A stretch of 64,000 nt of DNA from a virus (IMGVR_UViG_3300048995_000010:1-64000); one strand, 5' to 3'. Shown: positions 4,124-60,829, counted from the first letter of the stretch. The notes: generated from the letters alone by a model not told the origin. Program-made: numbers and translations.

Positions 4124-4447
4124 TTAATTCTTTGCTACCGGGGGCTCAACTGTTAGGCCAAGTGCAGCAGCTTCTGCGTTGGTATAACTGAAGTTACCGC
4201 CATCTTCAATAGTACGAACACCTTCACCGAGATCTGCATCAGCAGATACTTTCCAGGTGCTGGTACCAATAGTATCTTCTGAGATAAGGAAGGCGCCTAA
4301 ACCATCTTCATCTTCTTCGATAGTAGCATTACCTGAGATAACTTCCCAGGTTGGCTTACCATCAAGAGTAGCGGGATTACCGGCATTAGTTTTCGGAGCA
4401 AGGCGAATGTGGACTTTCTGTTCCACTGTACATGTGATATCCTGCAT
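4124..4447 (-). CDS. Ig-like virion accessory protein
   Basis: Beta-rich, PTWEVISG...GTSTWKVSADAD; C-terminus similar to 3713..4048. Confidence 0.6.
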   Translation of the reverse strand: MQDITCTVEQKVHIRLAPKTNAGNPATLDGKPTWEVISGNATIEEDEDGLGAFLISEDTIGTSTWKVSADADLGEGVRTIEDGGNFSYTNAEAAALGLTVEPPVAKN

Positions 4448-4497: not shown

Positions 4498-5064
4498 TCA
4501 GATTACTACTCTGGAAAGCCATGATGTCATGAACTTCTCCTGTATTGGATTACTACGGGCAATGTCCATGTAACGTGTACCTTGCTGACAATTCAGTAGA
4601 GTGAGTATCTGTTTTGGTCTTGGGTGAGCATTGAGTGCTGCTACTGTTTTTGCCCCCATTTTTCCATCTACTACTACATCTGGGTACTCTTTGCCATTAC
4701 GATTGGTAACATTGAGTGCTTTCTGCAAAAACTCAATAGGAAAGCGAGGATCCATATTCACACCAGTATCATACATTTCATTGGCAATATCCTGATTCTG
4801 TACCTGGTCCAGACACATTACATCCCAGAACTCTTCCTTATAAAACTCTAAGACCAGACGCTGCAAGGTTTGAGAATTTCGCAGATTGGTCTCAAAATTT
4901 TTACTGATAGGTTTAAAGGAGTCGATAATGGACCATCCTGTCCATTTGGGGTGGTAGTTACGAGCAATTCCTCTCCAGGTTTCTCCTCCAGAATCTCCTG
5001 GGGTGTTTGCATATCCTCCTTCAATTTTTGCTGTTCTGTCATAGGCTACTTTGAAATCTGCCAT
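4498..5064 (-). CDS. endolysin, glycoside hydrolase family 108 with C-terminal PG-binding domain
   Basis: IEGGYANTPGDSGGETWRGI catalytic motif; VVDGKMGAKT; QEKFMTSWLSRV. Confidence 0.92.
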   Translation of the reverse strand: MADFKVAYDRTAKIEGGYANTPGDSGGETWRGIARNYHPKWTGWSIIDSFKPISKNFETNLRNSQTLQRLVLEFYKEEFWDVMCLDQVQNQDIANEMYDTGVNMDPRFPIEFLQKALNVTNRNGKEYPDVVVDGKMGAKTVAALNAHPRPKQILTLLNCQQGTRYMDIARSNPIQEKFMTSWLSRVVI

Positions 5065-40719: not shown

Positions 40720-40741
40720 GTGGTATAGTGTTGTTTTGTAA

Positions 40742-40749
40742 CAAATATA
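40742..40749 (-). promoter_or_regulatory. canonical Bacteroidota -7 box TATATTTG
   Basis: Exact TAnnTTTG 22 nt upstream of the ATG at 40719. Confidence 0.65.
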
Positions 40750-40765
40750 AGCATCTGTGTCTAAA

Positions 40766-49102: not shown

Positions 49103-49384
49103 TTAGTCCTGGAAATGTGCTGTCAATCCTTTAATAGTAAAGACACATGCTTTCTCTAAAGCAGCTTGAGCTACTGCAAATTCTCTGGCAGTTCTGTTCT
49201 TCCAATCAGTGTCTTTTTCAATTCTGGCGAGTTCCTTGTTCTTGAGAAGTTCTATTTGATCCCACATATCTGCATATCGTTGCTTGGCCTCATCTACCAT
49301 TGGATCTTTGCTAGGATTGAAACTTGCTCGCATTACTTTCTGACCATTTGAGAGAACTGGCTTTGTTTGTATACTGGCTTCCAT
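49103..49384 (-). CDS. Acb2/Tad1-like anti-defence signal-sponge protein
   Basis: FNPS..VDEAKQRYADMWDQIE...REFAVAQAALEKACVFTIKGLT helical hairpin. It has its own promoter (TTTG-N19-TATATTCG at 49402-49432). Confidence 0.6.
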   Translation of the reverse strand: MEASIQTKPVLSNGQKVMRASFNPSKDPMVDEAKQRYADMWDQIELLKNKELARIEKDTDWKNRTAREFAVAQAALEKACVFTIKGLTAHFQD

Positions 49385-49429
49385 AATAGCTGTTGTTTTA
49401 ACGAATATAGGGTGTTTGTACATACTAAC

Positions 49430-49459
49430 AAAAATCCCAGTGTGAAAACACCGGGATTT
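49430..49459 (-). terminator. terminator with GTTTTCAC loop
   Basis: AAATCCCGGT-GTTTTCAC-ACTGGGATTT followed by TTG. Confidence 0.75.
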
Positions 49460-49480
49460 CTATGAAAACTAATAGTCGTA

Positions 49481-49897
49481 CTACTTGCAGAACAGATATA
49501 TGAATGATGTGATTATTGATAGATGCTTCAGTACTGCGCTCAGTAGTCTTGGTTCTATATGCAGTATGCCGGCCACTTTACGCTGCAGTATATCCCACTG
49601 AGCTGTAAATCCAATGTAGAACCACTCCCGTTTTAGTACCCAGGTGTTAACTGCTCCATCCAGAAAGTACCAGATGAGTGCCCAAGTGAGCAGGCCGTAA
49701 GCAGCTCCCCACAACAGTGAAATGGACACTCCCATCCATATGTGTATGAAACCCCCAGCCGCGTGCCACCATTTCTTCTGCAAATTGTCCTGCACAGTAT
49801 TGTTTGGCGTAATTGTGTCCTTTAGGAAGAATACCATCTGTAAGATAAGTGAAGCCACTCCTGTAAGTATCCACAGGAAGATGAGAATTTCTTTCAT
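49481..49897 (-). CDS. multi-pass membrane protein
   Basis: Several hydrophobic segments; WWH..GGFIH, YIGFTAQWD motifs. Confidence 0.65.
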   Translation of the reverse strand: MKEILIFLWILTGVASLILQMVFFLKDTITPNNTVQDNLQKKWWHAAGGFIHIWMGVSISLLWGAAYGLLTWALIWYFLDGAVNTWVLKREWFYIGFTAQWDILQRKVAGILHIEPRLLSAVLKHLSIITSFIYLFCK

Positions 49898-50285
49898 AAG
49901 AAGATTTTTTAGGTAGGGTAGCACCCCCGTCAGATTTAGCTTCTGTACCCCTGAGCCATGGAAGACATAACACAGTAATAGCCAAAGCTACAAATAGAAT
50001 ACTCAGGCCTAACTCCCCTCTCCAGTTTTTACCAAACCAGGCGCCAGTTTCGTTGACATAAGCCAGGAGCAAAAACAAGAGACAAAGGATGATCCCTACC
50101 CATACCAGGAGCCAGAAGTGAGGTACAAGCGCTACTGCTTCCCAGCCGGTAATGGTATACGTTTTAGTGTAAGAGGAGTAGGTACTTGAGGTGTTCAGGA
50201 ATCGGTTTGCTGCATAGATTAGCATCGCCAGGATTACTGGAAGTAATAGCCAGGCCGGATTGATCTTTTTGCTTTTTGTTGTCAT
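49647..50285 (-). CDS. membrane protein (3 TM); the C-terminal tail overlaps the next gene
   Basis: Hydrophobic N-terminal ~120 aa; CAACAGC-ATG leader. Confidence 0.55.
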   Translation of the reverse strand: MTTKSKKINPAWLLLPVILAMLIYAANRFLNTSSTYSSYTKTYTITGWEAVALVPHFWLLVWVGIILCLLFLLLAYVNETGAWFGKNWRGELGLSILFVALAITVLCLPWLRGTEAKSDGGATLPKKSSYERNSHLPVDTYRSGFTYLTDGILPKGHNYAKQYCAGQFAEEMVARGWGFHTHMDGSVHFTVVGSCLRPAHLGTHLVLSGWSS

Positions 50286-50307
50286 GCTGTTGATTTTTGA
50301 TGATAAA

Positions 50308-50934
50308 TTATTTGATTCTCCAGAGTGGTTGATAGAATGTTACCCCTTTATGCCACTGCCCATTCATACGAAGAATGTCTACTTTAAAGTGTTGTCCCTT
50401 CCTGTTAATGTATCCCAGGTCCAGGTGTCCCCCTGAGAACAGGATAGTCTTGGAATTATAGAATCCACCACCAAAGTAGACCATGGCAGGTGCTACTGTT
50501 TTTGTAACAGTCTCACTATAAACCTGTACATCCCATTGCCTGCCTATAATGTCATTATTATATACAGAGTCTGTCAAATTAATTCTAGCCCCCCGGGTAA
50601 TGAAACTGTCCTTCTTTATTCTCAGGGAGTAGTAATCCCGGATAATAGCCTCTGTATCCACTTTGACTGGGATATCCTTGACTGTTTCCCACTTACTCCC
50701 ATCTACCTCAAAAGCCTTGGGTAAGTCTGGATAGATGACTGCACCAGGCCTGTATACTGTATCTGTTCCCGGGTGAGTTACTACCTGATACTTCTTTAGA
50801 ATAGCCTGGGTATCTACACTCAATACTGCTGGATTGTCTGATTGCTTTGGTTGTTTGGTGCACTGCTGCAAGTAGAGAATGTAGATAACCAAGCCTACGA
50901 TGATAGCACCTGCTGTTGGTATTTTGTAATTCAT
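50308..50934 (-). CDS. putative spanin-like / outer-membrane lysis protein
   Basis: N-terminal TM ending LQQC, DT-rich stalk, amphipathic beta-strand C-terminus; next to holin-like genes. Confidence 0.45.
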   Translation of the reverse strand: MNYKIPTAGAIIVGLVIYILYLQQCTKQPKQSDNPAVLSVDTQAILKKYQVVTHPGTDTVYRPGAVIYPDLPKAFEVDGSKWETVKDIPVKVDTEAIIRDYYSLRIKKDSFITRGARINLTDSVYNNDIIGRQWDVQVYSETVTKTVAPAMVYFGGGFYNSKTILFSGGHLDLGYINRKGQHFKVDILRMNGQWHKGVTFYQPLWRIK

Positions 50935-51314
50935 AGATCTGTTTCCTGTTTTCCGTCTGCAATATTAGTTTTCTTGTCGACGATATGGAGTATTGCCTTA
51001 CGATACTTACTGAGCCTGGTAGCAATACCAGATCCAATGAATCCTACTCCACAGGCTCCCCATCTGATCTTTTCAATCCAGGTAGGTTTCCAGTTAAGTA
51101 TCTCTGGAAGTCCTATCAGAATGATAATACCAATGAGTTGTACTGTAATAAAGATGTTCCAGTCCCGATTCCACCATCTTCTTAAGGAGAAATCTTCATT
51201 GGATTTTTGATAGAGTTCTCTGAGGGCAGGTACATCAATGGCAAAGAAACATACTGCTTGTCCTAGTAAAAACATGAGGACAATCCAAATGTAAAGTTCT
51301 GTTGTAATTGTCAT
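50931..51314 (-). CDS. putative holin
   Basis: 127 aa, ~3 TM segments, basic/charged C-terminus. Confidence 0.55.
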   Translation of the reverse strand: MTITTELYIWIVLMFLLGQAVCFFAIDVPALRELYQKSNEDFSLRRWWNRDWNIFITVQLIGIIILIGLPEILNWKPTWIEKIRWGACGVGFIGSGIATRLSKYRKAILHIVDKKTNIADGKQETDL

Positions 51315-51319
51315 AGGGA

Positions 51320-51628
51320 TTATTTTGAGAGTGATTGATCTAATTTTTGTTGAGCTTCTATCCTAATGGTTCTTTCTCTAACATCTCTCATATCCAGTTG
51401 TATCTGGTTTATATAGAGTTTGTTGTCATTCATATAATTCGTCTGTTGTAGGTCATGTTCCTGGAGTTTAGTAACATCATTATTGATCTTGAAGAGGAAT
51501 CCAGCACAGGCGATTATTCCCCCGGAAGCTATTGATAGTAGAAAGCTATGCCAGTCTATCCTCTTTGTTTCCTGTGATGATCCGTTTGCTGATGCCATGA
51601 GTGCGATTTTTGGTTGTGTTGATTGCAT
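51320..51628 (-). CDS. single-TM coiled-coil protein (holin/antiholin-like)
   Basis: One TM then a coiled coil ending ERTIRIE. Confidence 0.5.
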   Translation of the reverse strand: MQSTQPKIALMASANGSSQETKRIDWHSFLLSIASGGIIACAGFLFKINNDVTKLQEHDLQQTNYMNDNKLYINQIQLDMRDVRERTIRIEAQQKLDQSLSK

Positions 51629-51648
51629 ATGACGATTTAGGTTTTAGC

Positions 51649-54600
51649 TCAACGAACTCTACGGGCTCTTATAGAACCAACGAACTGTGGATTTCCTACA
51701 GTAAATGACGACTGTGTATTCAGGTAGTACGTAGTCGTACCACTTAATGAAACTCTATAAGATGGTATTGCATCAGAAAATTTCGATGTACCCAGTAAGG
51801 CCGCTTGTGGAACATAACTTATATTCTGACCTTCAGTAGCACCTGACGCACTTGCAGTCGTTGTACTTACAACAAAGATGGCATTTGAAGCTGCTGTTAT
51901 TGTCGCTGAATTTGAATTGTAAGTAAAGAATGCAGACAGATCCCAATCACCAGCTGTCAGTGTGATGGATGTTATGTTCTGATACGTAGCAGTTGTAGTG
52001 TAGTTGGTATATGTACTGATAGTGGAATTTACTTCTTCCCCAATGTTTCCTACTACTGCATTGTTATTGGTTGCTGTTCCTACAATTGAATTAGTGGTTC
52101 CGAATGTTGCATTACCATTCCCGTCTAAGGTCATTATAGTAGCTAAAGACCCACTGTTTACTCCTGTGATATAGAATTGAGAAGTCCTGGTAGCATGTGT
52201 AGCATCAGTCCATTTCCATATTAACTGACCAGCAGTAGGTGTAAAATGACCATCATCTTCTATTACTAAATCAAGTGATCCACCAATACCATTCGCAGCA
52301 GTACCCGTACTAGATCTATCTAGCTGTAATACTTCCTGAATAGTATTTGTTGATGAGGGTGTTGAATATATCTTTGCCCCTCTCATACTATTACTGCTTA
52401 TTACTGCCCCTTCACTGTTTTGCCCTGTGGCTATTAGTCCAGTGCTTGTCCCGAATGCTCTTAGACCTATATTGGTAGATTGTGCGTCAACGCCAATTAG
52501 TGATCCAATTGAATACAACCCAGTACTGGTTGTACCACTATTGACTATAGAGACAAGTGTATCTGAATTATTAGTACCATCAAACCTGAGTGTAAATCCA
52601 CCACTTGATACATTTCTATCTGCCACCAGTGTCCCATTACCATTATATATCGTAGTGGTAGTTCCTGCTGCAACTGTGTCTCTAAGAGATAACAAACCAT
52701 TTGCATCCGCAACTATCATCTTTATGGTACCGGAGGTAGTCGGTGGGGTGCTGCCGGTTGCAAGTCCGGGAATGAATATCTTTCCCAAATCTGTATTATC
52801 TATTCTGAAAGTCCTAGTGAAAGTAGTGCTATCTGTATTGTCGATGAATCCAAAATCAAAAGTTCTTCCGGTAAATCCATCCGTAAAGAATCTCAGTGCG
52901 CCTGTTCCTGACCCGGAGAAACCCATCCCAAACCTTAGATGTAAGCCCCCGCCGTCACCCCTATATATCAGCCATTTCTGATCATCAATCACATTATCTC
53001 CTTTTATAGTAAGGCCACTGTTCATCGAGACAGTATTATTAAAATCAGACGTAGGCGTCACTTTTAAATGTGTTAATATCTCCGTATTTATATTATCAAC
53101 ATGAAATATATGTGTCGCTATAGTGCTATCTGAATTATCTATTTTGTCCACAGTGAACCCGGTACCATTAAATCCATCGACAAATGCTCTTAGCGTTCCA
53201 CCGCTACCGTAAGTTCCCAAATCGAATCCGTAATGCTGTGTGAGTCCACCGCCACTACCTCTATACAAAGTCCATTTAAAAGGTGTAAGGTCAGCGTCTC
53301 CTCTTATTATTAACCCCTTTCGTATAGTGGTAGCATTTAAGATATCACCAACAAGATTCAATGTCCCGCCTATATATTGTGTCCCATGAGTTGAGTCATC
53401 ACCTAAGTTATCAACCCCGCGCAGATATGTTCTACCAAAGTTTGTGATTGCCTTGAACACATGCAGCACATTGGCTTTTACATACTGTACGGAATCAAGT
53501 ACTGTTGAATTTAATAATCCTGTTGCTAGACTTAGTTGTCCTTTTATACTTAGATGCACACTATCATTGATTAGATTGTCATGATCCGCGTCCAGATGTG
53601 TGAAGGAATCAAAGCACTTTACTCCCTTTTCTGCACATACATGCATTGTTGCAAGTCTTAAATTTCTATCACATGCAATATTTGATGGATTGGGCGTACC
53701 GGTTAGAACAACTATTTTCTCTAAAGGATATGACCTGTTAATATGCAATGAATCTATCATCGCAATAAGGTGTGTACGCCAGGTAGTGCTATCTGTGTTG
53801 AATATTGAACATTCGTTGACTTGATAGTTACCTATAAGTAGATATCTGGTTGACTGATCATATACAGGAATAGTGGGTAGCTTGGCTTCCATTGATGAAT
53901 CACATGTAAGTCCACATCCCCCATGATTGATGAGGGTGGTGCCACTTGTCGCTCTGTTGTTGTTATACAAACCCAAACTGGCAGCAACTTGTTCAACCCA
54001 TATAGCCTTTTGAATAGGATCACCAGGAATAACTCCGGCATCAATACTAACTCCAAATGTTAGCATTGATTCAGTCCACCCAACCCGGGCAGTGTCCTTA
54101 TTACTGAACTGACCATTGGTAGCTAAAACATAATGACCTTGAAAGATGGTGTCATGTTTTGTCTGTACTGATCCCTGATCAAAAGTTTGCTGCAGTGTTT
54201 GACTACCCCCACTCCCGGCAGGCGTTGTAAAAGTACCATCTTCAGAAAGATACTTTGTAGATGAGGGAGATCCGGATGCTGCAGGTACAAGTCCCTTTAA
54301 ACTAGCGCCGAATGTATTAAGTTCTGCAGTCAACTGTGTAGCAGTAAGATCAATTGCATTAGCAGTGGAACCTGTGTTATTCCCCTTGAATGTATGAGCT
54401 GCCATCTGTGCAGTCTTTGCATTAGTAACAGCATTACTACTTATGGTTGCAGCAACTGAGCCTGGCCCAGTGAATACAACATCTCCTGTTCCGGCTGTAA
54501 CATAGTTACCTGTTGGTTGCTTACCATTTATCTGAGTCTGAAGTGCAGAAGTTACCCCTGATGAATAAGATAGTTCAGTAGCTGTTACTATAGAATGAAT

Positions 54601-55650
54601 TGGGATACCATTGGCATCTGAAATGAGTGCCCTGGCTGCTGTGATAGCGGCAGCTTCTACAATGGCGCCACCTGAGGATTGCATCACCCTATTATTGGAA
54701 AGTGCAGTAGAAGAATTAGTACCCCCCAGAGAGATAGGTACTGTAGTAATTGAAATAGCACCGGTAGATGAGTTATATGATATAGGAGAGATTCCCGAGA
54801 GAAGTCCTCTGGTGAATGACTGATTGAGAAACAGCGAATCTCCTGAAAAAGAAATACCACCACCTGCTTTATTAAATGTTCCCGATCCACCCCCGGAAGA
54901 CGCCGGCCGTACTTCAAGCATACCTGTAGACCTGTTCAAAAACAAAGTGGAATCAGCCGTGGTAGCATTAGCTGGAATGAAGGGGAGTATCAGTTGTCTC
55001 AGTAGGATGGTATCATTGAGATCTATTGCCGGATTACCGGATACTCCTGTAGGATTGACAATCGAGATATTCGTAGAACCTGCAATGAACTGCCGGGAAG
55101 CAGTGGTACCCAGGGCAGTCCTGACTACTAAACCATTCGATCCCGGGTCAGGTAACTTGGCATTAAAAATCACCCAGTCTGCCTGTGACAGGTAACCTGA
55201 GACTGTACCGGTAGCAACTGGGATAGATATAACTCCAGTGACACCGTTATATAATAAAGGAGTGGATGCACTGAACTGTGATCTTACTTTGAGTCCGAAG
55301 TTGGATATAGAAGAAGTATCGAAAGTTTGAACAGAGGACTGTGCAAGAGTCTTCCATACTTGAGCTGGATTGCCAATTTCCAGTGCAAGGGAATCTGTGT
55401 TATATCTGAGGATGTACTTACTCGCAGGAACAGTGGGCCGTTGAGCGGTGGTCCCGGGTGGAGTAGTAAGGTCATACCCGGAAGTTGTGATGTTTGTAAG
55501 TGCATTGTAGATGGAATAGTTTGGGAGTTGTTTGAACCGGTAATCCTTGGAGAATACCGAATCTGTAATGACTTTTTGAAAAACTCCTATCTGAGCATGG
55601 CTGATCAAAAACAACACCATACTCAAAAGAAATAGTACGCTACGTTTCAT
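51649..55650 (-). CDS. tail-fibre/spike-like protein with Sec signal peptide and SGNH esterase domain
   Basis: Start MKRSVLFLLSMVLFLISHA|Q; S/T/G-rich fibre repeats; SGNH blocks FGVSI, ATSGTT, QVNE, DSVH; ends SIRARRVR. Confidence 0.72.
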   Translation of the reverse strand: MKRSVLFLLSMVLFLISHAQIGVFQKVITDSVFSKDYRFKQLPNYSIYNALTNITTSGYDLTTPPGTTAQRPTVPASKYILRYNTDSLALEIGNPAQVWKTLAQSSVQTFDTSSISNFGLKVRSQFSASTPLLYNGVTGVISIPVATGTVSGYLSQADWVIFNAKLPDPGSNGLVVRTALGTTASRQFIAGSTNISIVNPTGVSGNPAIDLNDTILLRQLILPFIPANATTADSTLFLNRSTGMLEVRPASSGGGSGTFNKAGGGISFSGDSLFLNQSFTRGLLSGISPISYNSSTGAISITTVPISLGGTNSSTALSNNRVMQSSGGAIVEAAAITAARALISDANGIPIHSIVTATELSYSSGVTSALQTQINGKQPTGNYVTAGTGDVVFTGPGSVAATISSNAVTNAKTAQMAAHTFKGNNTGSTANAIDLTATQLTAELNTFGASLKGLVPAASGSPSSTKYLSEDGTFTTPAGSGGSQTLQQTFDQGSVQTKHDTIFQGHYVLATNGQFSNKDTARVGWTESMLTFGVSIDAGVIPGDPIQKAIWVEQVAASLGLYNNNRATSGTTLINHGGCGLTCDSSMEAKLPTIPVYDQSTRYLLIGNYQVNECSIFNTDSTTWRTHLIAMIDSLHINRSYPLEKIVVLTGTPNPSNIACDRNLRLATMHVCAEKGVKCFDSFTHLDADHDNLINDSVHLSIKGQLSLATGLLNSTVLDSVQYVKANVLHVFKAITNFGRTYLRGVDNLGDDSTHGTQYIGGTLNLVGDILNATTIRKGLIIRGDADLTPFKWTLYRGSGGGLTQHYGFDLGTYGSGGTLRAFVDGFNGTGFTVDKIDNSDSTIATHIFHVDNINTEILTHLKVTPTSDFNNTVSMNSGLTIKGDNVIDDQKWLIYRGDGGGLHLRFGMGFSGSGTGALRFFTDGFTGRTFDFGFIDNTDSTTFTRTFRIDNTDLGKIFIPGLATGSTPPTTSGTIKMIVADANGLLSLRDTVAAGTTTTIYNGNGTLVADRNVSSGGFTLRFDGTNNSDTLVSIVNSGTTSTGLYSIGSLIGVDAQSTNIGLRAFGTSTGLIATGQNSEGAVISSNSMRGAKIYSTPSSTNTIQEVLQLDRSSTGTAANGIGGSLDLVIEDDGHFTPTAGQLIWKWTDATHATRTSQFYITGVNSGSLATIMTLDGNGNATFGTTNSIVGTATNNNAVVGNIGEEVNSTISTYTNYTTTATYQNITSITLTAGDWDLSAFFTYNSNSATITAASNAIFVVSTTTASASGATEGQNISYVPQAALLGTSKFSDAIPSYRVSLSGTTTYYLNTQSSFTVGNPQFVGSIRARRVR

Positions 55651-55667
55651 CTGGGTGAGATTTTGTT

Positions 55668-55675
55668 CAAATGTA
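55668..55675 (-). promoter_or_regulatory. canonical -7 box TACATTTG
   Basis: Exact TAnnTTTG 17 nt upstream of ATG 55650, which supports that start. Confidence 0.6.
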
Positions 55676-55685
55676 CCCATTATAT

Positions 55686-55735
55686 AAAAACCCTCATACA
55701 AAGTACTGGAAATGCCGTACTAATGAATGAGGGTT
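55686..55735 (-). terminator. terminator
   Basis: AACCCTCAT...ATGAGGGTT stem followed by T run. Confidence 0.6.
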
Positions 55736-55762
55736 GTGACGTATATATGTTCTATAGCCTTG

Positions 55763-56056
55763 TTACTGCTTCGGTTTAGTCTGACGAAGCTGACTATTCA
55801 ATGTGGAATCATTTGCCTGATTGACCAGGAAGTCTGCCATCTCATTAGCAGTTTTTGCATCTACCATCTGTGTATAACGGATCAGGTATACCAGGGTGTT
55901 GAAGTTGGGAACCGGTATCCTGAGATTTACCATGGGCTGAAGTGGCTGTGCTTGAGTTGTTGGTTGAGGGATTTCCTTCTTCTCTTTGTTTTTGGTCTGA
56001 GCCTGTAGGGATAATGCAAAAACAAAGGAAAGGGATAGTACTGTGATGCGTTTCAT
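55763..56056 (-). CDS. secreted small protein
   Basis: MKRITVLSLSFVFALSLQA|Q signal peptide; TATCTTCA box at 56071-56078. Confidence 0.7.
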   Translation of the reverse strand: MKRITVLSLSFVFALSLQAQTKNKEKKEIPQPTTQAQPLQPMVNLRIPVPNFNTLVYLIRYTQMVDAKTANEMADFLVNQANDSTLNSQLRQTKPKQ

Positions 56057-56078
56057 AGCTGTTGTTTTGATGAAGATA

Positions 56079-56816
56079 TTATGAATTGATCAATTGTGGT
56101 AATCCTGCCATGTATGTCTTTAGCATTCTGTGTAATTTATGATTCCATCTGGCATCAGCCAAGGCATGGTGCTCATTATCTCCAGGTACATTATCATCCT
56201 TCCATTGTTTAGTGAGAGATAGTTCATCCATCATCTGCTTGAGATCTCGGCAGTACATCGGATAACCTTTAGGGAGATCCAGCATTCTATCAAAGAGTGA
56301 ACAGAATAAGACCCAGTCATAGTCTGCGTAGTAACCATAGAACACAGGAGTATCTATTGGATCAGGATTTTCCTTGAGCAGTCCTCGGAATTTAACCTGA
56401 CTAGTGAAATCCTCAATTTCTTTTGCTATCTGTTTGTTGCTTTTACCAAATTGTGCAATCAGTTGTTTCAAGTGAGAATAGGTGAATGTCTCCCAGCATG
56501 AGGTATACTCTTTCTGTGCTCCAGTGATCTGCTTTCTGAGATGTAACCATAGGGGCTTGAGTACATTCTCCCGTAGCCAATACACTTTTACAGGAGGATC
56601 TCCCATCTCCAGTTGTGACTTCAAATCATACTTATTCCATACATGCTTCAAGTCAAACTCATTGGACACCGCGTAGTAGTCTCTACCATCTTCAGCTACG
56701 ATACCAATAGAGATTAGATCAATGTAGTGTCTGGGCTTCTCCCGTTTAAAGTCAGGAATAACCAGACAACTATTTGTAAAGTCTTCAATAAATTCCGTGT
56801 CAAGATAGTAATTCAT
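56079..56816 (-). CDS. DEDDh 3'-5' exoribonuclease (Rv2179c-like)
   Basis: YYLDTEF, LISIGIVAEDGR, YADYDWV, HHALADARWN. Confidence 0.88.
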   Translation of the reverse strand: MNYYLDTEFIEDFTNSCLVIPDFKREKPRHYIDLISIGIVAEDGRDYYAVSNEFDLKHVWNKYDLKSQLEMGDPPVKVYWLRENVLKPLWLHLRKQITGAQKEYTSCWETFTYSHLKQLIAQFGKSNKQIAKEIEDFTSQVKFRGLLKENPDPIDTPVFYGYYADYDWVLFCSLFDRMLDLPKGYPMYCRDLKQMMDELSLTKQWKDDNVPGDNEHHALADARWNHKLHRMLKTYMAGLPQLINS

Positions 56817-56832
56817 AGGGCTGTTGTTTCAC

Positions 56833-56863
56833 CGAAGATATAGGATTGCTCTACAAAAACAAA
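56833..56863 (-). promoter_or_regulatory. promoter TTTG-N19-TATCTTCG
   Basis: Bacteroidota -33/-7 architecture upstream of ATG 56816. Confidence 0.6.
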
Positions 56864-56887
56864 ACCCAGGGTGGATACCCCGGGTTT
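56860..56887 (-). terminator. terminator with GTATCCAC loop
   Basis: AAACCCGGG-GTATCCAC-CCTGGGTTT followed by TG. Confidence 0.7.
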
Positions 56888-56978
56888 ATACCCTTTGATA
56901 TACGTTCTTATGAAACAAGAGTTAGCCCCGTTACTGCCGGGGCCTGGTGAGTTTACACCGCTGTACCCTCACCCATTA

Positions 56979-57158
56979 TCAGTATGGTGTTTCCACCTTC
57001 TTTTTCTTGAATGTTATGGTGATGAACAACTGATAGGTTACTACCAGTAGAGTACCGAGACTCCCTGTTCCCAGTGCTTCATCAAAAATTAGAGGAGGGA
57101 GTCCACACAGTAGTGCTTGCTTCTCTCCTGGTACCTTATGCTTTTGGTAGAACTCCAT
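56979..57158 (-). CDS. small membrane protein (59 aa, MEFYQKHK...)
   Basis: Read manually; hydrophobic segment then KKKK. Confidence 0.45.
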   Translation of the reverse strand: MEFYQKHKVPGEKQALLCGLPPLIFDEALGTGSLGTLLVVTYQLFITITFKKKKVETPY

Positions 57159-57507
57159 CTTGCTTTTGTTTTTGATTGACTCTGCAGAGCCTGATGCCGG
57201 CTTCTTCTAATAAAGGAAGTAGTATATCTCTCACATAATGCCTGGAACCCCCACCGGTAAGTTCATGTTTTGCATCTGCTCGTCTTACTACCTCAGTAAC
57301 GGCATCATATGTCTCAGCCTTTGAATTATCCAGAAGTTGTATAGCAGGATCTATTCCAAGAATATGTCTAGCAGCTTTTTTACTATATTCCACTCTTTTT
57401 GGATCATTCTCTTGGAGTTGTTCATATAGTCCCTTTTCAAAGGACTTCTTTAATGCTGGGTCATTATTACCAGTAGGACCATCTGTGAGGGAGTTCCTTT
57501 TATCCAT
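57136..57507 (-). CDS. hypothetical protein (MDKRNSLTDG...)
   Basis: AACAACAGCT-ATG leader and TATCTTCG box (57522-57529) fix the start at 57507, not 57648. Confidence 0.7.
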   Translation of the reverse strand: MDKRNSLTDGPTGNNDPALKKSFEKGLYEQLQENDPKRVEYSKKAARHILGIDPAIQLLDNSKAETYDAVTEVVRRADAKHELTGGGSRHYVRDILLPLLEEAGIRLCRVNQKQKQDGVLPKA

Positions 57508-57530
57508 AGCTGTTGTTTGTTCGAAGATAC

Positions 57531-57615
57531 AAAAACTCCCCAAGTAGAAACAAGGGGAGTAAATCCAATATCCTATAGTGTGATCGCTCACACTTGAAAT
57601 ACCGTAGAAAAACCG
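57531..57615 (-). ncRNA. candidate small RNA
   Basis: Promoter TTTG-N19-TATCTTGT, GNRA hairpin AGTGTGA-GCGA-TCACACT, terminator with GTTTCTAC loop plus T5; no ORF. Confidence 0.5.
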
Positions 57616-57627
57616 GGTACAAGATAC

Positions 57628-57723
57628 AAAAACAAAGAGATCCACCAAATTCCTGATGGATCTCCCCCTTTGCTAAAAATCTTTTATATCATCTCCCTCA
57701 AATGAGAACAAATGTGGTTGACA
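57628..57723 (-). ncRNA. candidate small RNA
   Basis: Promoter TTTG-N20-TATCTTTA, ORF-less body, terminator GAGATCCA..TGGATCTC plus T-rich tail. Confidence 0.5.
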
Positions 57724-57833
57724 CAAGTAAAGATACTACTGTTCTATAGCTTCTTCAAAAACAAGATAGTAGTTCTTGAGAGGCTCAAAGAAATCAGCTG
57801 CAGCAGTATGCTTGTCAATGTGTTTCAATTCCT

Positions 57834-58151
57834 CTATGGTGCGATTATAACCTGTTTAGTCTCCAGTAATTTCTTGAACTCCTGCTTTGATACAAAAACA
57901 AAGTCAGAGGGCACAATCACCCCATTATACACCTTCTGGAATAATCTCTCCAGTTCCTGCTGTCTCAACTGCTTACGTAGTAGGTGACATGCCTCTGCAG
58001 CCTTAGCCTGACAGATCTGTCTGAACTGCTCGCGTTTTTGTTGAGCCTCATACTCCTTCGAACCCATGTATAGAGTACGTTGGTTCCTGTCCTGTGCATA
58101 CATGGAGTCTGCAGCTTCTTTCATGTTGTCTATTAGTGATGGGTTACTCAT
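57834..58151 (-). CDS. hypothetical protein (MSNPSLIDN...)
   Basis: Start overlaps the upstream stop; helical. Confidence 0.6.
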   Translation of the reverse strand: MSNPSLIDNMKEAADSMYAQDRNQRTLYMGSKEYEAQQKREQFRQICQAKAAEACHLLRKQLRQQELERLFQKVYNGVIVPSDFVFVSKQEFKKLLETKQVIIAP

Positions 58152-58308
58152 TGTCTGTGTTTTTATTGTACCGGTTAACCATTTCATCAATGATAGGATC
58201 TGTACCTTCTTCCACCATAGTAATAAAGAATGCGGTTTTATTCCACCAACCATCTTCAAATTTCATGGTGAAGGTTTGTCCTCCTATACCTGGTCTATCA
58301 TCTTCCAT
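58144..58308 (-). CDS. small hypothetical protein (MEDDRPG...)
   Basis: Overlap-coupled chain of small ORFs. Confidence 0.55.
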   Translation of the reverse strand: MEDDRPGIGGQTFTMKFEDGWWNKTAFFITMVEEGTDPIIDEMVNRYNKNTDNE

Positions 58309-58456
58309 GTTCTTCTGTTTTTGGTTTGATATCCTGTTCTTCCTTAAGTATTCTGTCAAACATATCAGCAAAAGCCTCTGCTGCAGTCTTAAAAGTGGGT
58401 AGCTGTTCCATCTGTTCCCATATCCCTATTGGTATGTTTTTATCAGGTAGTGGCAT
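58298..58456 (-). CDS. small hypothetical protein (52 aa, MPLPDKNIP...)
   Basis: Read manually; overlaps both neighbours. Confidence 0.5.
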   Translation of the reverse strand: MPLPDKNIPIGIWEQMEQLPTFKTAAEAFADMFDRILKEEQDIKPKTEEHGR

Positions 58457-58619
58457 GTGTCATTTTTGGTTTGATATCCCACAAAAATCCCCTCAAGGTA
58501 GGGAACATCCTGGCTATCTGTTGTAGCTGGAACTGTTCCTGCATTTTCCACTCTACATAATCCATCCAGACTGGAGGAATCTCTTGTTCTACTGGATTAC
58601 CATGTTGATCGAGTATCAT
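58443..58619 (-). CDS. small hypothetical protein (58 aa, MILDQHGNP...)
   Basis: Read manually; ATGA coupling to the upstream gene. Confidence 0.55.
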   Translation of the reverse strand: MILDQHGNPVEQEIPPVWMDYVEWKMQEQFQLQQIARMFPTLRGFLWDIKPKMTHATT

Positions 58620-58858
58620 CCTTGAGCTCTTTTACTTGGAGGTAATGGGACTATTGGCAATCTAATCTCTGTGCCATCTACAGAAACCATTGCCTGGTGA
58701 GTGGATACACCTACTGGTATTCCCAAAAATTGGAATGGGGTACCACACTGCTCACAAAAACACCTGACATCAGCCATATACTGATTTACCTGTCCGGTAT
58801 CATTAGTAAGACGGTGAACTGTACCCTGAATTTGAAAGATCTCGTGTTGACAATCCAT
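58616..58858 (-). CDS. small Zn-binding protein (MDCQH...CEQCG)
   Basis: CxH and CxxC pairs; AATAACAACAGT-ATG leader and TATCTTCA box (58875-58882). Confidence 0.65.
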   Translation of the reverse strand: MDCQHEIFQIQGTVHRLTNDTGQVNQYMADVRCFCEQCGTPFQFLGIPVGVSTHQAMVSVDGTEIRLPIVPLPPSKRAQG

Positions 58859-58931
58859 ACTGTTGTTATTTGTATGAAGATACAGAAATCTTACATCTCT
58901 CACTGGGGAAACGTACGTCTGTACTGGAGAT

Positions 58932-59474
58932 TTAAACACAAAGTCTTTTATACAGTAGGTGTATCTTCTCCAGGAAATCTTCATAACTCATATCCAGTTT
59001 CATTGAATTACAGTGGGAGCAACATGGAAGACAGTTCCCAGAAAGGTAACCCTGATCGTTGTGTTTTCTATCAAGACCACTATATTGGATAGACTCTTTC
59101 TTGGATTTAAACAGGTTAGATGGAGGCTTATCACAATAGTGACAGTTTTGTAGTACCAAGGCTGAAAACTCTTCAAGTGTAAGACTGAATTGGAGTTCTC
59201 TCCTATTAGCCTCATATCTCTTCCATACATAGAGTCTTCCTTCTATTGTTTTCATCCTCCTGCACCCACAAGACATGGGAGGATTCTTAGAACGCAGCTT
59301 ATCCACCTTCAATAATATCTCTTTCCCACACTTACACCTGCATATCCATCTTGTTTTAGTATGTCCCCCGGAAGTTCTATACTCAGCCCCCTGTTTTATG
59401 ATAGTGAGATCCCCTACGATCAAGCCAGTCATGTCAACTAACGGTCTTCCTAAAGTACTTATGATCTGTGTCAT
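58932..59474 (-). CDS. free-standing HNH homing endonuclease
   Basis: RWICRCKCG..SCGC N-domain; CHYC..GLDRKHNDQGYLSGNCLPCCSHCNSMK; TATCTTCG box at 59479-59486. Confidence 0.85.
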   Translation of the reverse strand: MTQIISTLGRPLVDMTGLIVGDLTIIKQGAEYRTSGGHTKTRWICRCKCGKEILLKVDKLRSKNPPMSCGCRRMKTIEGRLYVWKRYEANRRELQFSLTLEEFSALVLQNCHYCDKPPSNLFKSKKESIQYSGLDRKHNDQGYLSGNCLPCCSHCNSMKLDMSYEDFLEKIHLLYKRLCV

Positions 59475-59494
59475 GGGACGAAGATAAGGTTTAG

Positions 59495-59645
59495 GGGTGA
59501 AATAGCCCGGTACCCCTCGAATAAAAAGGATACCCCCCGGTAACTTCATGTGTATCAGAGGGGCCACTGCCTACCTCAGTTGACAGTCCCCGGCTATGTT
59601 TTGGGATTGAACTATCCCCGGCATTGCAATAGGGCACTGCCATAC
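59495..59645. other. GC-rich divergent strand-switch region with repeated CCC(C)GG (candidate genome terminus or early promoter region)
   Basis: Four CCC(C)GG motifs in ~120 non-coding nt where coding flips from - to +. Confidence 0.4.
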
Positions 59646-59663
59646 ATTCAAACTAAACACAAA

Positions 59664-60278
59664 ATGTCTACAAATTCAACAACACTCGTGCTCTCTGCAG
59701 CAAAGGTTCGTTCTATCATTGCATCTCGCTCTATCGTAAAGACTGTGCAAGTTGGTGATACTGTTCGCTTTCACATTCAAGGTAATGGTGTTACCATACC
59801 TGTGAAGACTAGTGCTGGTGCTATAGTCATGGCTAATGGTACAAACATACCACTCACCAAGACCATCTATGGTACTAAGGTCAACTCACAGGTTGCCATG
59901 ATGAATGAGCGCAACAGGCAACTGTTGAAAGACGCTGTTGCAGCTGAAGCTGCTGGTGCTGATGACTTCGAGGTTACCAAAGCGTTCAACACCTATCTGA
60001 ATAAGATTCAGGTGTCGTTCAGCATCCTTCACAATCCTGGTCGTAAGATCGAGACTTTCTACAACAAGCAACTTGTTGAAGCTGAAGTCGAGCTGATCAC
60101 TACGGATAATGGACAACTTCTGACGTTCACCAACGTTAGACCTGTGAAGACCGAGAAGCTGGGATCTACACCAGAGTTCACACTGGAAGATCTCATGGGA
60201 TTATCTGCTGATGGTCCTAAAGCCGAGGATGTGTTTACACCTGCTGAGGGTGTAGAGGCTGATGCTGAGAAAGCATAA
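59664..60278 (+). CDS. first early-arm gene; beta-rich protein with acidic tail (SSB-like)
   Basis: ATG 59664 after an A-rich leader; acidic C-terminus. Confidence 0.6.
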   Translation: MSTNSTTLVLSAAKVRSIIASRSIVKTVQVGDTVRFHIQGNGVTIPVKTSAGAIVMANGTNIPLTKTIYGTKVNSQVAMMNERNRQLLKDAVAAEAAGADDFEVTKAFNTYLNKIQVSFSILHNPGRKIETFYNKQLVEAEVELITTDNGQLLTFTNVRPVKTEKLGSTPEFTLEDLMGLSADGPKAEDVFTPAEGVEADAEKA

Positions 60279-60299
60279 GTACAACACATCATGTGAACA

Positions 60300-60467
60300 A
60301 ACTGTAGAGGCCGTAACTCCAGCGGAGGTGTGAAAGTCACTTCATCAGTGGTATTCTGCATAAGTGTGGAATACTGGGATGAGAAGCAATACACGCACGG
60401 CACAACAAGAATGGAGAACTACAGCTCACTCATGCCAACTCAGGGGTAACACCTTGAGTTGGTTTTT
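60300..60467 (+). ncRNA. candidate pseudoknotted structured RNA ending in an intrinsic terminator
   Basis: CTGTAG/CTACAG closing stem; crossing GCCGT/ACGGC and CTCCA/TGGAG helices; internal hairpins; terminator 60435-60467. Confidence 0.5.
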
Positions 60468-60493
60468 AATTCATCACCTTTCAACTCATTCAT

Positions 60494-60604
60494 ATGCATC
60501 ATAACAACTATGATCAAGAGACTATCTGGGATCACCTCATGCCTTACCTGGTCATCGGTGGTCTGATTGGGTTGGTTGCCATATTTGCAGCCAACTTGGG
60601 ATAA
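60494..60604 (+). CDS. 36-aa single-TM peptide (MHHNNYDQETIWDHLMPYLVIGGLIGLVAIFAANLG)
   Basis: Read manually; flanked by terminators. Confidence 0.55.
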   Translation: MHHNNYDQETIWDHLMPYLVIGGLIGLVAIFAANLG

Positions 60605-60627
60605 CTCATTATTGGGACAGGTTCATT

Positions 60628-60663
60628 GGTCAGCATCTCCATGGGGAGTGCTGGCCTCTTTTT
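60628..60663 (+). terminator. intrinsic terminator
   Basis: GGTCAGCA..CTCC/GGAGTGCTGGCC stem followed by TCTTTTT. Confidence 0.7.
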
Positions 60664-60708
60664 GGCGGGCACAGTTTGCCAGTAGCTAAATTCCTGTTAC
60701 CTTCAAGA

Positions 60709-60778
60709 CGCTGGAAACAGCATTCTTTCACATACAATAGAGCGACCCGCTGTGTCTACAGTGGGTCTATTCTTTCAA
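60709..60778 (+). ncRNA. candidate small RNA
   Basis: Promoter TTTG-N19-TACCTTCA (60675-60705), 5' GNRA hairpin GCTG-GAAA-CAGC, terminator with GTGTCTAC loop; no ORF. Confidence 0.5.
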
Positions 60779-60829
60779 GCTCACAGTTCGTGAGTAGCTA
60801 ACATTCACTAACACTCTAAACTCACAGTC

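Follow-up and report, generated by a model that had tools for sequence, protein, structure and literature searches.

Hairpins in the window and their genomic context

The window, 64,000 nt in length, comprises bases 1-64000 of the 99-kb genome of a crAss-like phage (G000). Four hairpins had been claimed here by a sequence-only reading, and all four were found at the places and on the strands it gave. Hairpin A (49428-49463, minus strand) has a stem of up to 16 pairs, including an A/U extension, with the tip G-U[UUUC]A-C and a U-tract next to it. The stem begins 17 nt past the stop codon (49481-49483) of ORF 49481-49897/49924, and the computed fold has an energy of -21.3 kcal/mol (z -5.4). Hairpin B (56862-56887, minus strand) consists of an 11-bp stem with one G.U pair, the tip G-U[AUCC]A-C and the tail UGUUUUUG. 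Hairpin C (57535-57560, minus strand) has the outer stem ACUCCCC/GGGGAGU, two U.U mismatches, the tip G-U[UUCU]A-C and the tail UUUUUG. Hairpin D (60744-60767, plus strand) has a 10-bp stem with one G.U pair, the tip C-U-G-U[GUCU]A-C-A-G and the tail UAUUCUUUC; the first small early-type ORF (ATG 60830) begins 63 nt downstream. At B, C and D, conserved sites stand out from intergenic DNA that has otherwise diverged.

The octamers at the tips of A-D are GTTTTCAC, GTATCCAC, GTTTCTAC and GTGTCTAC, respectively. The shared octamer is thus real, but it does not form the 8-nt loop that had been described: each tip is a tetraloop (UUUC, AUCC, UUCU and GUCU in A-D) closed by a U-A and a G-C pair, and in C the two U.U mismatches lie beneath these closing pairs. 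Orthologues of A carry the tetraloops UUCU (contigs L024 and L025), GUCU (L027), UUCC (L028) and AUCU (L029). The L024 orthologue of B has the tip GUGUCUAC on an altered stem, and that of C is paired at every position, likewise with the tip GUGUCUAC. Orthologues of D are present in L024, L027, L028 and L029.

A family of covarying hairpins with a nearly invariant apex

G000 contains six members of the family, A-F, three of which carry the identical 12-mer CUGUGUCUACAG. The 12-mer of hairpin D, CTGTGTCTACAG, occurs twice more on the same strand (78821 and 80670), each time on a different perfect stem of 10-11 bp, while about 0.006 copies per strand would be expected by chance. Related phages retain the apex at orthologous sites and change the stems. 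Recurrence of the 12-mer and retention of the apex in relatives place the similarity of the loops far above chance. Ten related contigs yielded 24 tabulated members, and six more were found in L266-L268; these counts overstate the number of events, because members at orthologous sites of different phages are not independent. Among the 24, the apex positions read G (24), U (24), N (G 11, U 8, A 5, C 0), U (24), C (23), U (21), A (24) and C (23).

Nine of the 11 stem pairs had changed on both sides, with 95% of cells paired, and the covariation score was 0.715, whereas shuffles reached 0.19 and slid controls no more than 0.15; as the members were chosen by a hairpin criterion, these figures partly reflect selection. 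G.U pairs (about 34) lie only in the sense strand, and the antisense model scores much lower. All six units of G000 fold into the expected hairpin with z values between -3.6 and -5.8. On the strength of these patterns, hairpins A-D are assigned to a clade-specific family with variable, covarying stems of 9-12 bp and an essentially invariant apex, G-U-[N-U-C-U]-A-C.

Distribution of the family

A covariance model built from the family (R1) gave six matches of at least 32 bits in the 99-kb genome of G000 and few elsewhere. Hairpin A scored 34.2 bits on the minus strand compared to 21.4 bits on the plus strand; B and C scored 35.3 and 32 bits. Other viral contigs totalling 307 kb, made up of distant crAss-like loci and unrelated motif hits, gave one match, and the same single match was recovered in about 400 kb from five distant records, amounting to one or two matches in about 0.5 Mb of distant crAss-like DNA overall. 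In 2.0 Mb from five Bacteroidota genomes, which may not include the host of the phage, one match of at least 28 bits was found. A census of terminator-like hairpins gave a similar picture: 3 of 457 were family-like in the 2.0 Mb of Bacteroidota DNA, compared to about 6 of 30 in the phage. The terminator that follows the Acb2-like gene, which is orthologous in five phages and lies outside the family, served as an internal control: its loops read ctt, ctcta, ccagt, taa and atgc. A whole-genome search against Rfam returned no match at the gathering score; around E and F, at E values up to 1, only the two tRNAs appeared, and around B-D nothing credible.

Predicted terminators and members adjoining tRNA genes

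A U-tract was scored by script in 19 of the 24 members, and in about 22 once three stems that had been cut at an internal mismatch were corrected. In G000 it lies directly 3' of the stem in A-E and is absent in F (80664-80687), as it is in L032:4808. Among the members found later, L268:5793 has no U-tract and that of L266:8284 is weak. Members that abut a tRNA or lack a tail comprise E and F of G000, L032:4808, L268:1439 and L268:5793, and L266:6867; at least three adjoin tRNA 5' ends with no U-tract in between. Because U-tracts occur together with positions that end genes or short promoter-proximal non-coding units, most members are likely Rho-independent terminators, and those with a U-tract are predicted as such. 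The proposed family of terminators with a conserved tip on variable stems thus stands, with the stems shown to covary; the CAU seeds that had been attached to it do not (see below).

We know of no particular loop sequence required by ordinary terminators. The apex is missing from most of the remaining terminators in these phages and in Bacteroidota, and several members abut tRNAs without a U-tract or, as F, lack one. For these reasons the apex appears dispensable for termination; its role is more likely one in recognition, with selection for something beyond termination. We therefore consider it probable that the hairpins form a terminator-type, sense-strand family whose apex serves as a handle for a trans-acting partner. 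Whether through termination or RNase P cleavage, the hairpin would come to stand at the 3' terminus of an RNA, and its apex would be retained by selection for something besides termination. The handle might be read by an RNA-binding protein of phage or host or by a complementary RNA loop, and for a subset of phage transcripts the partner would then control read-through, 3'-end processing or stability. The sequence-only reading had taken a conserved loop on variable stems as a sign of protein recognition; the pattern supports recognition by a trans-acting partner, which may be either a protein or an RNA. No candidate RNA-binding protein was found among the precomputed Pfam labels of neighbouring genes.

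A tRNA-like gene with a loop complementary to the apex

A candidate for a partner RNA lies next to hairpin E. A non-canonical tRNA-like gene called as tRNA-Ser(aga) (G000 78852-78927) begins 13 nt past this hairpin; it has the loop GUAGACA, with G32 and C37, and the long variable arm is absent. GUAGACA is the reverse complement of UGUCUAC, positions 2-8 of the apex in D, E and F. The orthologue in L266 keeps the loop while its T-stem covaries. In L030, a separate lineage, the only tRNA-like gene has the 6-nt loop AGAAAC (reverse complement GUUUCU), and GUUUCUAC is found on the main hairpin. Loop and apex are hence complementary over 7 of 7 nt in G000 and L266 and 6 of 6 nt in L030, for which random 7-mer loops gave probabilities of 0.0005 (7 nt) and 0.0055 (6 nt or more). 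The base opposite N tracks N (C with G, A with U), since the loops of G000/L266 and of L030 differ accordingly.

These matches raise the possibility, to which we give only limited credence, that a tRNA-shaped RNA of the phage pairs loop-to-loop with hairpins of the CUGUGUCUACAG type, much as in a kissing complex or at a T-box specifier. Such an interaction might tune termination or processing, or recruit tRNA enzymes to the hairpin RNAs. It is favoured by the exact loop complement in both G000/L266 and L030 and by the opposite base following N. However, the lead emerged post hoc from a set of 16 predicted tRNAs and concerns two independent lineages only: in L031, L032, L267 and L268 family hairpins are present and no predicted tRNA loop is complementary. 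The registers differ between the two lineages, A, B and C of G000 pair over at most 5 nt, and both closing pairs of the tetraloop must open. As a tentative extension, unlikely as a whole, a subset of crAss-like phages might mark the 3'-terminal hairpins of selected sRNAs and mRNAs with a GU-NUCU-AC handle read by a dedicated partner, with the tRNA-shaped RNA as one candidate. If true, termination or RNA processing would be under the control of a tRNA-like regulator acting in trans; we know of no phage description of a regulator of this type.

Host terminators with the same tip

The tip might instead suit the RNA polymerase or NusA of the particular Bacteroidota host, folding or terminating especially well; the phage would then employ it frequently as efficient insulation, and there would be no specific reader. 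In line with this, 151 Bacteroidota genomes contain 20 ordinary terminators with the tip, all downstream of ORFs and with A- and U-tracts, and 3 of 140 tetraloop terminators had family-like tips where about 0.35 were expected. Nevertheless, we regard such tuning to the host as improbable. The density in the sampled Bacteroidota is about 100-fold lower than in the phage, at least 15 other strong terminators of the same phage use unrelated loops, and the tip is absent from more distant crAss-like phages. Moreover, members without a U-tract, including the tRNA neighbours, are not terminators. To our knowledge, GU-NUCU-AC is also not among the specially stable tetraloops of the nearest-neighbour tables, which counts against this explanation as well.

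Putative promoters, leaders and short non-coding units

Hairpins A, B and C are each trailed by TTTG/TATNTTCG-N3-AAACAACAGC-ATG. After A (49382-49431, minus strand), the U-tract ends in TTTG, after which come 19 nt, TATATTCG (49402-49409), N3, AAAACAACAGC and ATG 49384, the start of an Acb2/Tad1-like gene; the layout is repeated in L024. We take this to be a promoter from the Bacteroidota -33/-7 consensus. After B (56814-56861, minus strand), a TTTG overlapping the U-tract is followed by 19 nt, TATCTTCG (56833-56840), N3, AAACAACAGC and ATG 56816, the start of an RNase T-like gene. After C (57505-57534, minus strand), the order is UUUUUG, TATCTTCG (57521-57528), AAC, AAACAACAGC, U and ATG 57507. 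In A and B the TTTG at the U-tract end thus stands 19 nt upstream of a TAnnTTCG box, as a -33 element would, whereas C does not have this spacing. The promoter and leader repeat was also found after non-family hairpins (40749 and 81354), and the gene content between hairpin-promoter cassettes varies among relatives.

C, D and E are also preceded, at a distance of 40-90 nt, by promoter-like -33/-7 boxes conserved in L024; none precedes A, and B follows a 250-nt 3' UTR. Hairpin C ends a putative promoter and non-coding body of about 60 nt (57561-57626, minus strand) with TATCTTGT at 57619-57626. In the alignment with L024, this body is conserved over ~20 nt at its start and ~11 nt at its end, with a variable middle. 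Hairpin D ends a body of about 35 nt behind a putative host-type promoter (60675-60743, plus strand) with TTTG at 60675-60678, 19 nt and TACCTTCA at 60698-60705; the promoter is 93% identical to that of L024 and the body cannot be aligned. Judged by these elements, units C, D and E, three of the six in G000, look like transcripts made up of a promoter, a body of 40-90 nt and the hairpin, with promoter and hairpin conserved and the body variable.

The composite of hairpin, promoter and leader repeated between small accessory genes, as in PeSLs (PMC2839356), could also point to an element acting in DNA. Either the hairpin would extrude in single-stranded DNA, or tip and promoter would form a PeSL-like recombination linker, serving replication priming, recombination or module shuffling. 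The orientation of the hairpins follows the gene blocks flanking the divergence point near 59.6 kb, which would correspond to the lagging-strand template if replication starts there, and DNA hairpins tolerate G.T pairs. However, linkers need long shared sequence, while different stems here have only 8-12 nt in common; the gene-end sites and consistent U-tracts agree with RNA termination; the distance to any downstream DNA motif is not fixed; and six sites per 99 kb are too few for lagging-strand priming. We consider a role in DNA quite improbable.

Hairpin promoters of the N4 type, used by a virion RNA polymerase, have a template-strand hairpin with a 3-nt loop. The present hairpins have a 4-nt loop, the stable hairpin is on the non-template strand, and most copies are at gene ends and not just upstream of early starts; this class was rejected. 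In phage phi14:2, no common motif was found upstream of early transcripts (bioRxiv 10.1101/2020.03.07.982082).

Segments upstream of the hairpins

The hairpins had further been proposed to belong to programmable antisense sRNAs, in which variable CAU seeds pair with start regions and the conserved loop loads a chaperone or effector. The quoted upstream strings are present and do match the ATGs at 49897 and 56056, but as a set they do not rise above chance. The claimed seed of A, TTTTCATAG/UUUUCAUAG (49460-49468, minus strand), matches the start at 56056 over 8 nt, equalled by 183 of 200 shuffles; that of D, TTCACATAC/UUCACAUAC (60727-60735, plus strand), has a best start-region complement of 8 nt, equalled by 144 of 200. 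The seed of B, TTTCATAAGAA (about 56906-56916) or GUUUCAUAAGAA (56905-56916, minus strand), is complementary to the ATG region at 49897 over 11 nt. In five of the six units the longest matches were no longer than those of shuffled seeds. The sole exception was the 11-mer of unit B, which exceeded 197 of 200 shuffles (3/200, or about 0.09 corrected for six tests). In the closest relative, L024, both this seed and its target start have changed, without compensation.

CAT was not enriched upstream of the hairpins, with 19 occurrences seen and 14 expected in 18 members, and CAT-bearing windows were no commoner in the family (8/12) than among non-family terminators (22/41; p = 0.52). Unit A is simply the 3' end of an mRNA, and part of its seed is paired: in the extended stem, AUAG at the 3' side of the seed is opposite the U-tract. 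The body of the short units does differ between relatives while promoter and hairpin are retained; the variable bodies sit in DNA that is diverged throughout, so this variability needs no special explanation. Thus, despite the sRNA-like layout of units C, D and E, the 11-nt complement and the precedent of the Bacteroides sRNAs GibS and FopS, which pair with translation initiation regions (PMC7366714, PMC11697453), the antisense model is largely refuted on these sequence grounds and we hold it to be very improbable.

Comparison with known systems

GibS and FopS (PMC7366714, PMC11697453) share with the short units a host-type promoter (putative in the phage), a single-stranded 5' part, an intrinsic terminator and an organization in multicopy families. 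In these sRNAs, however, the 5' seed is conserved and pairs with start regions, whereas here the 5' part is unconserved and shows no pairing above chance, and it is the tip of the terminator that is conserved.

The PeSL cassettes of T4-type phages, which are conserved over about 100 bp and were proposed to drive recombination (Arbiol et al. 2010, PMC2839356), likewise repeat a terminator stem-loop, a strong host-type promoter and a leader between small accessory genes, and in both cases the stem-loop may overlap promoter elements. In contrast, the PeSL stem is rich in G/C tracts and its loop is undefined, while here TATCTTCG-N3-AAACAACAGC is a separate repeat and the 8-nt tip appears to be the feature under selection.

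With intrinsic terminators in general, the family has in common a GC-rich stem-loop followed by a U-tract, sense orientation, location at the ends of genes or short RNAs, and covarying stems. It differs in holding seven of eight tip positions invariant over at least 30 copies in 13 contigs, and in including copies without a U-tract placed against tRNA 5' ends.

T-box specifiers and the RNA I-RNA II kissing loops resemble the possible pairing of an anticodon loop with a displayed hairpin sequence over the full 7-nt loop. Here, the complementarity extends to two lineages only and the tip is a closed tetraloop instead of an open 7-nt loop. We noticed no Stem I platform, T-box sequence or antiterminator alternative, and the Rfam T-box model gave no match in the regions searched.

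The proposed handle may also be compared with the boxB element bound by lambda N and the histone stem-loop bound by SLBP and 3'hExo. No sequence identity to either was seen, nor any homologue of N or SLBP. BoxB acts in anti-termination from a site downstream of promoters, and the histone mRNA element is a 3'-terminal, pyrimidine-rich tetraloop closed by a U-A pair. In both, as in the present family, a short hairpin conserved in its loop and closing pair, but not in the sequence of its stem, marks a set of transcripts, a resemblance that we take to be one of logic only.

Hairpins with a conserved tip on variable stems

The four hairpins described in the sequence-only reading, A (49428-49463, minus strand), B (56862-56887, minus), C (57535-57560, minus) and D (60744-60767, plus), all proved real, with fold z scores of -3.6 to -5.8. 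Their shared octamer had been taken for an open loop; it forms a tetraloop closed by U-A and G-C pairs (GU-NUCU-AC), beneath which unit C has two U.U mismatches. The degenerate octamer occurs 89 times in the whole genome, and on long stems in only six copies, the other two being hairpins E (78814-78839, plus) and F (80664-80687, plus), which lie outside the window. D, E and F have an exact 12-mer, CUGUGUCUACAG, in common on three different stems.

Closer relatives, present as partial contigs in metagenome assemblies, were reached via the proteins flanking the units (52-77% identity for the RNase T-like protein). Orthologous hairpin sites precede the Acb2-like gene, the RNase T-like gene and the early genes, and one more lies in the non-coding cassette. 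At these sites the stems are altered by compensatory substitutions, while the tips read GUGUCUAC, GUUUCUAC, GUAUCUAC or GUUUCCAC. More members were obtained from tRNA-cluster loci of further relatives. Among 24 tabulated members, which were selected by a hairpin criterion and include orthologous copies that are not independent, the tip counts were G24, U24, N (G11, U8, A5, C0), U24, C23, U21, A24 and C23. Double changes were observed in 9 of 11 stem pairs, with 95% of cells paired. Gene conversion as the source of tip identity was ruled out, as the stems differ and N differs among tips of one genome. About 34 G.U pairs fall on the sense strand and the antisense model scores low; the pattern points to a family that is RNA-level and directional. 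The hairpins match no Rfam family, and no description of the tip motif was found in the literature searched.

Specificity of the family

A covariance model was built from 17 members. It recovered each of the six copies in the 99-kb genome with a score of at least 32 bits. The model gave one match in 307 kb of other viral contigs (distant crAss-like loci and unrelated motif matches), the same single match in five distant whole records (~400 kb), and one 28-bit match in 2.0 Mb sampled from five Bacteroidota genomes. A search of 151 Bacteroidota genomes yielded 20 matches; ten were inspected and proved to be ordinary chromosomal terminators in which the tip occurs by coincidence. Family-like tips were found on 3 of 457 terminator-like hairpins in the Bacteroidota census versus about 6 of 30 in the phage. 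The family was absent from IMG/VR relatives found via the RNase T-like protein at 45% identity or less, which were thus taken as negative controls. The 14-mer GCTGTGTCTACAGC matched more than 116 IMG/VR contigs; since only 3 of 80 form an extended hairpin, these matches are mostly due to chance. At the orthologous site of a non-family terminator after the Acb2-like gene, five phages carry five unrelated loops, indicating that loops normally drift freely at such evolutionary distance. The model is usable to annotate such elements together with the short non-coding units they close.

Genomic setting

The record is 99,350 bp long, of which the window covers bases 1-64000. PHROG matches (major head protein, portal, large terminase) and giant ORFs of 3809, 1926 and 1773 aa suggest that the phage is crAss-like. 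Phages of this type are among the most abundant Bacteroidota viruses; to our knowledge, their transcription control beyond the early phase is barely understood, and we know of no Hfq or ProQ in Bacteroidota. Genes lie on the minus strand from ~3.7 to 59.5 kb; the remainder of the genome, from 59.6 kb around to 3.7 kb, has its genes on the plus strand. The hairpin units are located on both sides of the divergence point amid small accessory and early-type genes, among them genes for Acb2/Tad1-like and RNase T-like exonuclease proteins and, in relatives, for Tad2-like and BubE proteins. Pfam and PHROG scans of neighbouring ORFs returned structural genes and the RNase T-like exonuclease only, with no RNA-binding candidate. 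Megablast of the 49-58 kb region against GenBank phages gave no match, and a search of bacterial genomes with the major capsid protein found no prophage relative and hence no host clue.

Two further features of the layout were observed. The ORFs at 49481-49924 and 49647-50285 (minus strand) share ~250 nt, read in different frames. Each of them matches five relatives over its full length by tblastn, and in L029 one frame of the pair is a single 276-aa gene; either the genes overlap or a membrane protein may be made by programmed frameshifting. The related contig L024, otherwise ~85-100% identical on either side, lacks the 130-nt stretch at 60300-60430 (plus strand), which follows gene 59664-60278 and precedes the terminator at 60434-60463; this is an indel of a non-coding module.

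The hairpins as probable terminators and RNA 3' ends

A U-tract is present in about four in five members. Hairpin A lies 17 nt after a stop codon and B closes a 250-nt 3' UTR; upstream of C, D and E, with no ORF in between, a promoter-like TTTG-N19-TAnnTTnn box lies 40-90 nt away. At A and B, the TTTG ending the U-tract is located 19 nt upstream of the next TAnnTTCG box, a -33-like spacing that C lacks, and the predicted promoter following A and B leads into the repeated leader AAACAACAGC directly before ATG. By all sequence criteria testable here, the units are intrinsic terminators. Between this genome and L024, the conserved islands are promoters, hairpins and tails. The bodies of C and D could not be aligned, which needs no special explanation since the surrounding early region has diverged throughout.

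Not all members can be terminators, since F lacks a U-tract and the 5' end of a tRNA or tRNA-like gene follows 1-13 nt after E, L266:6867, L032:4808, L268:1439 and L268:5793. The hairpin would form an RNA 3' end in every position, through either termination or RNase P cleavage. The tip, not the stem, is probably under strong selection across diverged phages, which would mean that a factor controls termination, the RNA 3' end or RNA stability. The wild-type hairpin and a tip mutant would provide a short, testable bait for the factor.

A complementary tRNA-like loop

One possible reader of the tip is a tRNA-like loop complementary to it. The gene called tRNA-Ser(aga) by ARAGORN (78852-78927) begins 13 nt after hairpin E, lacks the long variable arm and has a non-canonical anticodon loop, GUAGACA (G32, C37), the exact reverse complement of UGUCUAC in the tip of D, E and F. 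In the L266 orthologue the loop is kept and the T-stem covaries. In the separate lineage of L030, the loop of the sole tRNA-like gene is 6 nt long and reads AGAAAC, which is complementary to GUUUCU; the main hairpin of L030 bears GUUUCUAC. For random 7-mer loops, P was 0.0005 for 7 nt and 0.0055 for 6 nt or more; two independent matches among ~15 loops are thus unlikely (roughly 1 in 1000), in a test that was post hoc. Exact complementarity in two independent lineages speaks for such a reader, but four other loci of the clade (L031, L032, L267 and L268) have no complementary loop and the registers differ between the two lineages. We consider this reader unlikely; if real, it would provide a function for many odd non-decoding phage 'tRNAs'. 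A scan for any hairpin loop with AGANA was dropped as far too permissive (333 matches).

In several tRNA-shaped genes of the clade, the anticodon loop has 6 or 8 nt or the anticodon stem is weak (L030:4255-4328; L031:4533-4621, 4689-4760 and 4835-4906; L267:4660-4733; L266:6908-6980), and the gene at L266:6908 has GUCUAC within the anticodon arm. These genes are unlikely to be ordinary decoders.

Upstream CAU strings and other candidates

According to the sequence-only reading, CAU-bearing strings upstream of the hairpins would be antisense guides to start codons. These strings do occur, as do the matches claimed for them at the start codons at 49897 and 56056. The enrichment expected of such seeds was not observed: the 40-nt segments upstream of 18 members contained 19 occurrences of CAT versus 14 expected, and CAT was present in 8 of 12 family windows versus 22 of 41 non-family terminator windows (p=0.52). 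TTCAT was nominally enriched (3 of 12 versus 1 of 41) in one of four tests, two of the three being orthologues of each other, from site A here and in L024. The longest complement of the upstream segments to 121 start regions was at shuffle level except for B, for whose 11-mer 3 of 200 shuffles were as good. This pairing is not kept, as in L024 both the seed and the orthologous start have changed and the match is lost. The seed of A, supposedly single-stranded, is partly paired. We conclude that the putative seeds are chance matches.

RbpB, the Bacteroides global RNA binder, was set aside as reader of the tip because it binds single-stranded regions, not hairpin loops. A promoter role of the tip, as a -33 or UP-type element, was also rejected: downstream promoters lie at varying distances from it, and D, E and F have no promoter of that kind.

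Other repeated and structured elements

A promoter-plus-leader repeat, TAT(C/A)TTC(G/A), N3, AAACAACAGC, 1-4 nt, ATG, occurs on the minus strand at 49382-49409, 56054-56081, 56814-56840, 57505-57528 and about 58850-58880. The pattern TAT(C/A)TTC(G/A)-N3-AAACAACAGC is also present in the whole record at 81354-81386 (plus) and 40720-40756 (minus). The repeat stands before several accessory genes, with a looser version before the major head gene, and L024 keeps it. It probably combines a host-type -7 box with the translation leader of a Shine-Dalgarno-less Bacteroidota phage. IMG/VR yielded only single matches to the pattern, probably by chance.

The region 57634-57760 (minus) comprises a promoter-like box, TATCTTTA, a non-coding body and a 15-bp non-family terminator. 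About 45 nt of the body (UGUGUCAACCACAUUUGUUCUCAUUUGAGGGAGAUGAUAUAA) are 100% identical in L024, compared to about 75-85% for nearby coding DNA, making the region a strong small-RNA candidate with conserved sequence. A two-hairpin element at 56924-56985 (minus) consists of GGGUGAGGGUACAGSGGUGUAAACUCACC and a GC-rich hairpin. It is part of the 3' UTR that separates gene 57136-57507 from hairpin B, is almost unchanged in L024 and matches no Rfam family. The motif (GA)GAGTAGCTAA/GAGAGTAGC is located before and after D (60682-60690 and 60792-60801, plus) and recurs in early regions of L024, L027, L028 and L029. We regard it as a candidate site for an early promoter or a regulator, and it may have a bearing on the virion RNA polymerase.

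The strong terminator at 60434-60463 (plus), after gene 59664-60278, has orthologues in L024, L025, L027 and L029. Its 12-bp stem is largely replaced and an A-rich hexaloop is kept (GUAACA, GUAGAA, GUAAAA, AUAAUA, AUAACA), a second instance of a conserved loop, here specific to one site. Another hairpin family with a conserved loop combines a variable 5-6-bp stem with the heptaloop CAGAAAA and is located directly 3' of tRNA genes in five phages: 78928-78946 of this record (L015:14928-14946, the numbering beyond the window), L030 about 4331-4349, L031 4622-4638 and 4761-4779, L032 4737-4755, and L266 7155-7173. Its AGAAA is complementary to UUUCU of the first family, over 5 nt only. About 150 nt after F, at 80700-80830 (L015:16700-16830), a T-arm-like GGGTTCGACTCCCA lies in a 1.2-kb stretch without a convincing ORF and may belong to another tRNA-like or structured RNA missed by ARAGORN and Rfam.

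Comparison with known systems

N4-type hairpin promoters were rejected as a model for the family hairpins. The units are also not GibS/FopS-type small RNAs, since the tests for seeds failed. In its logic of a conserved tip on a variable stem, the family resembles boxB and the histone stem-loop. A published analysis of phi14:2 found no common motif upstream of early transcripts and two highly transcribed intergenic regions (bioRxiv 10.1101/2020.03.07.982082), which is compatible with abundant short non-coding units such as those described here. The hairpin-promoter-leader composite, in turn, would work like the PeSL cassettes of T4-type phages (PMC2839356).
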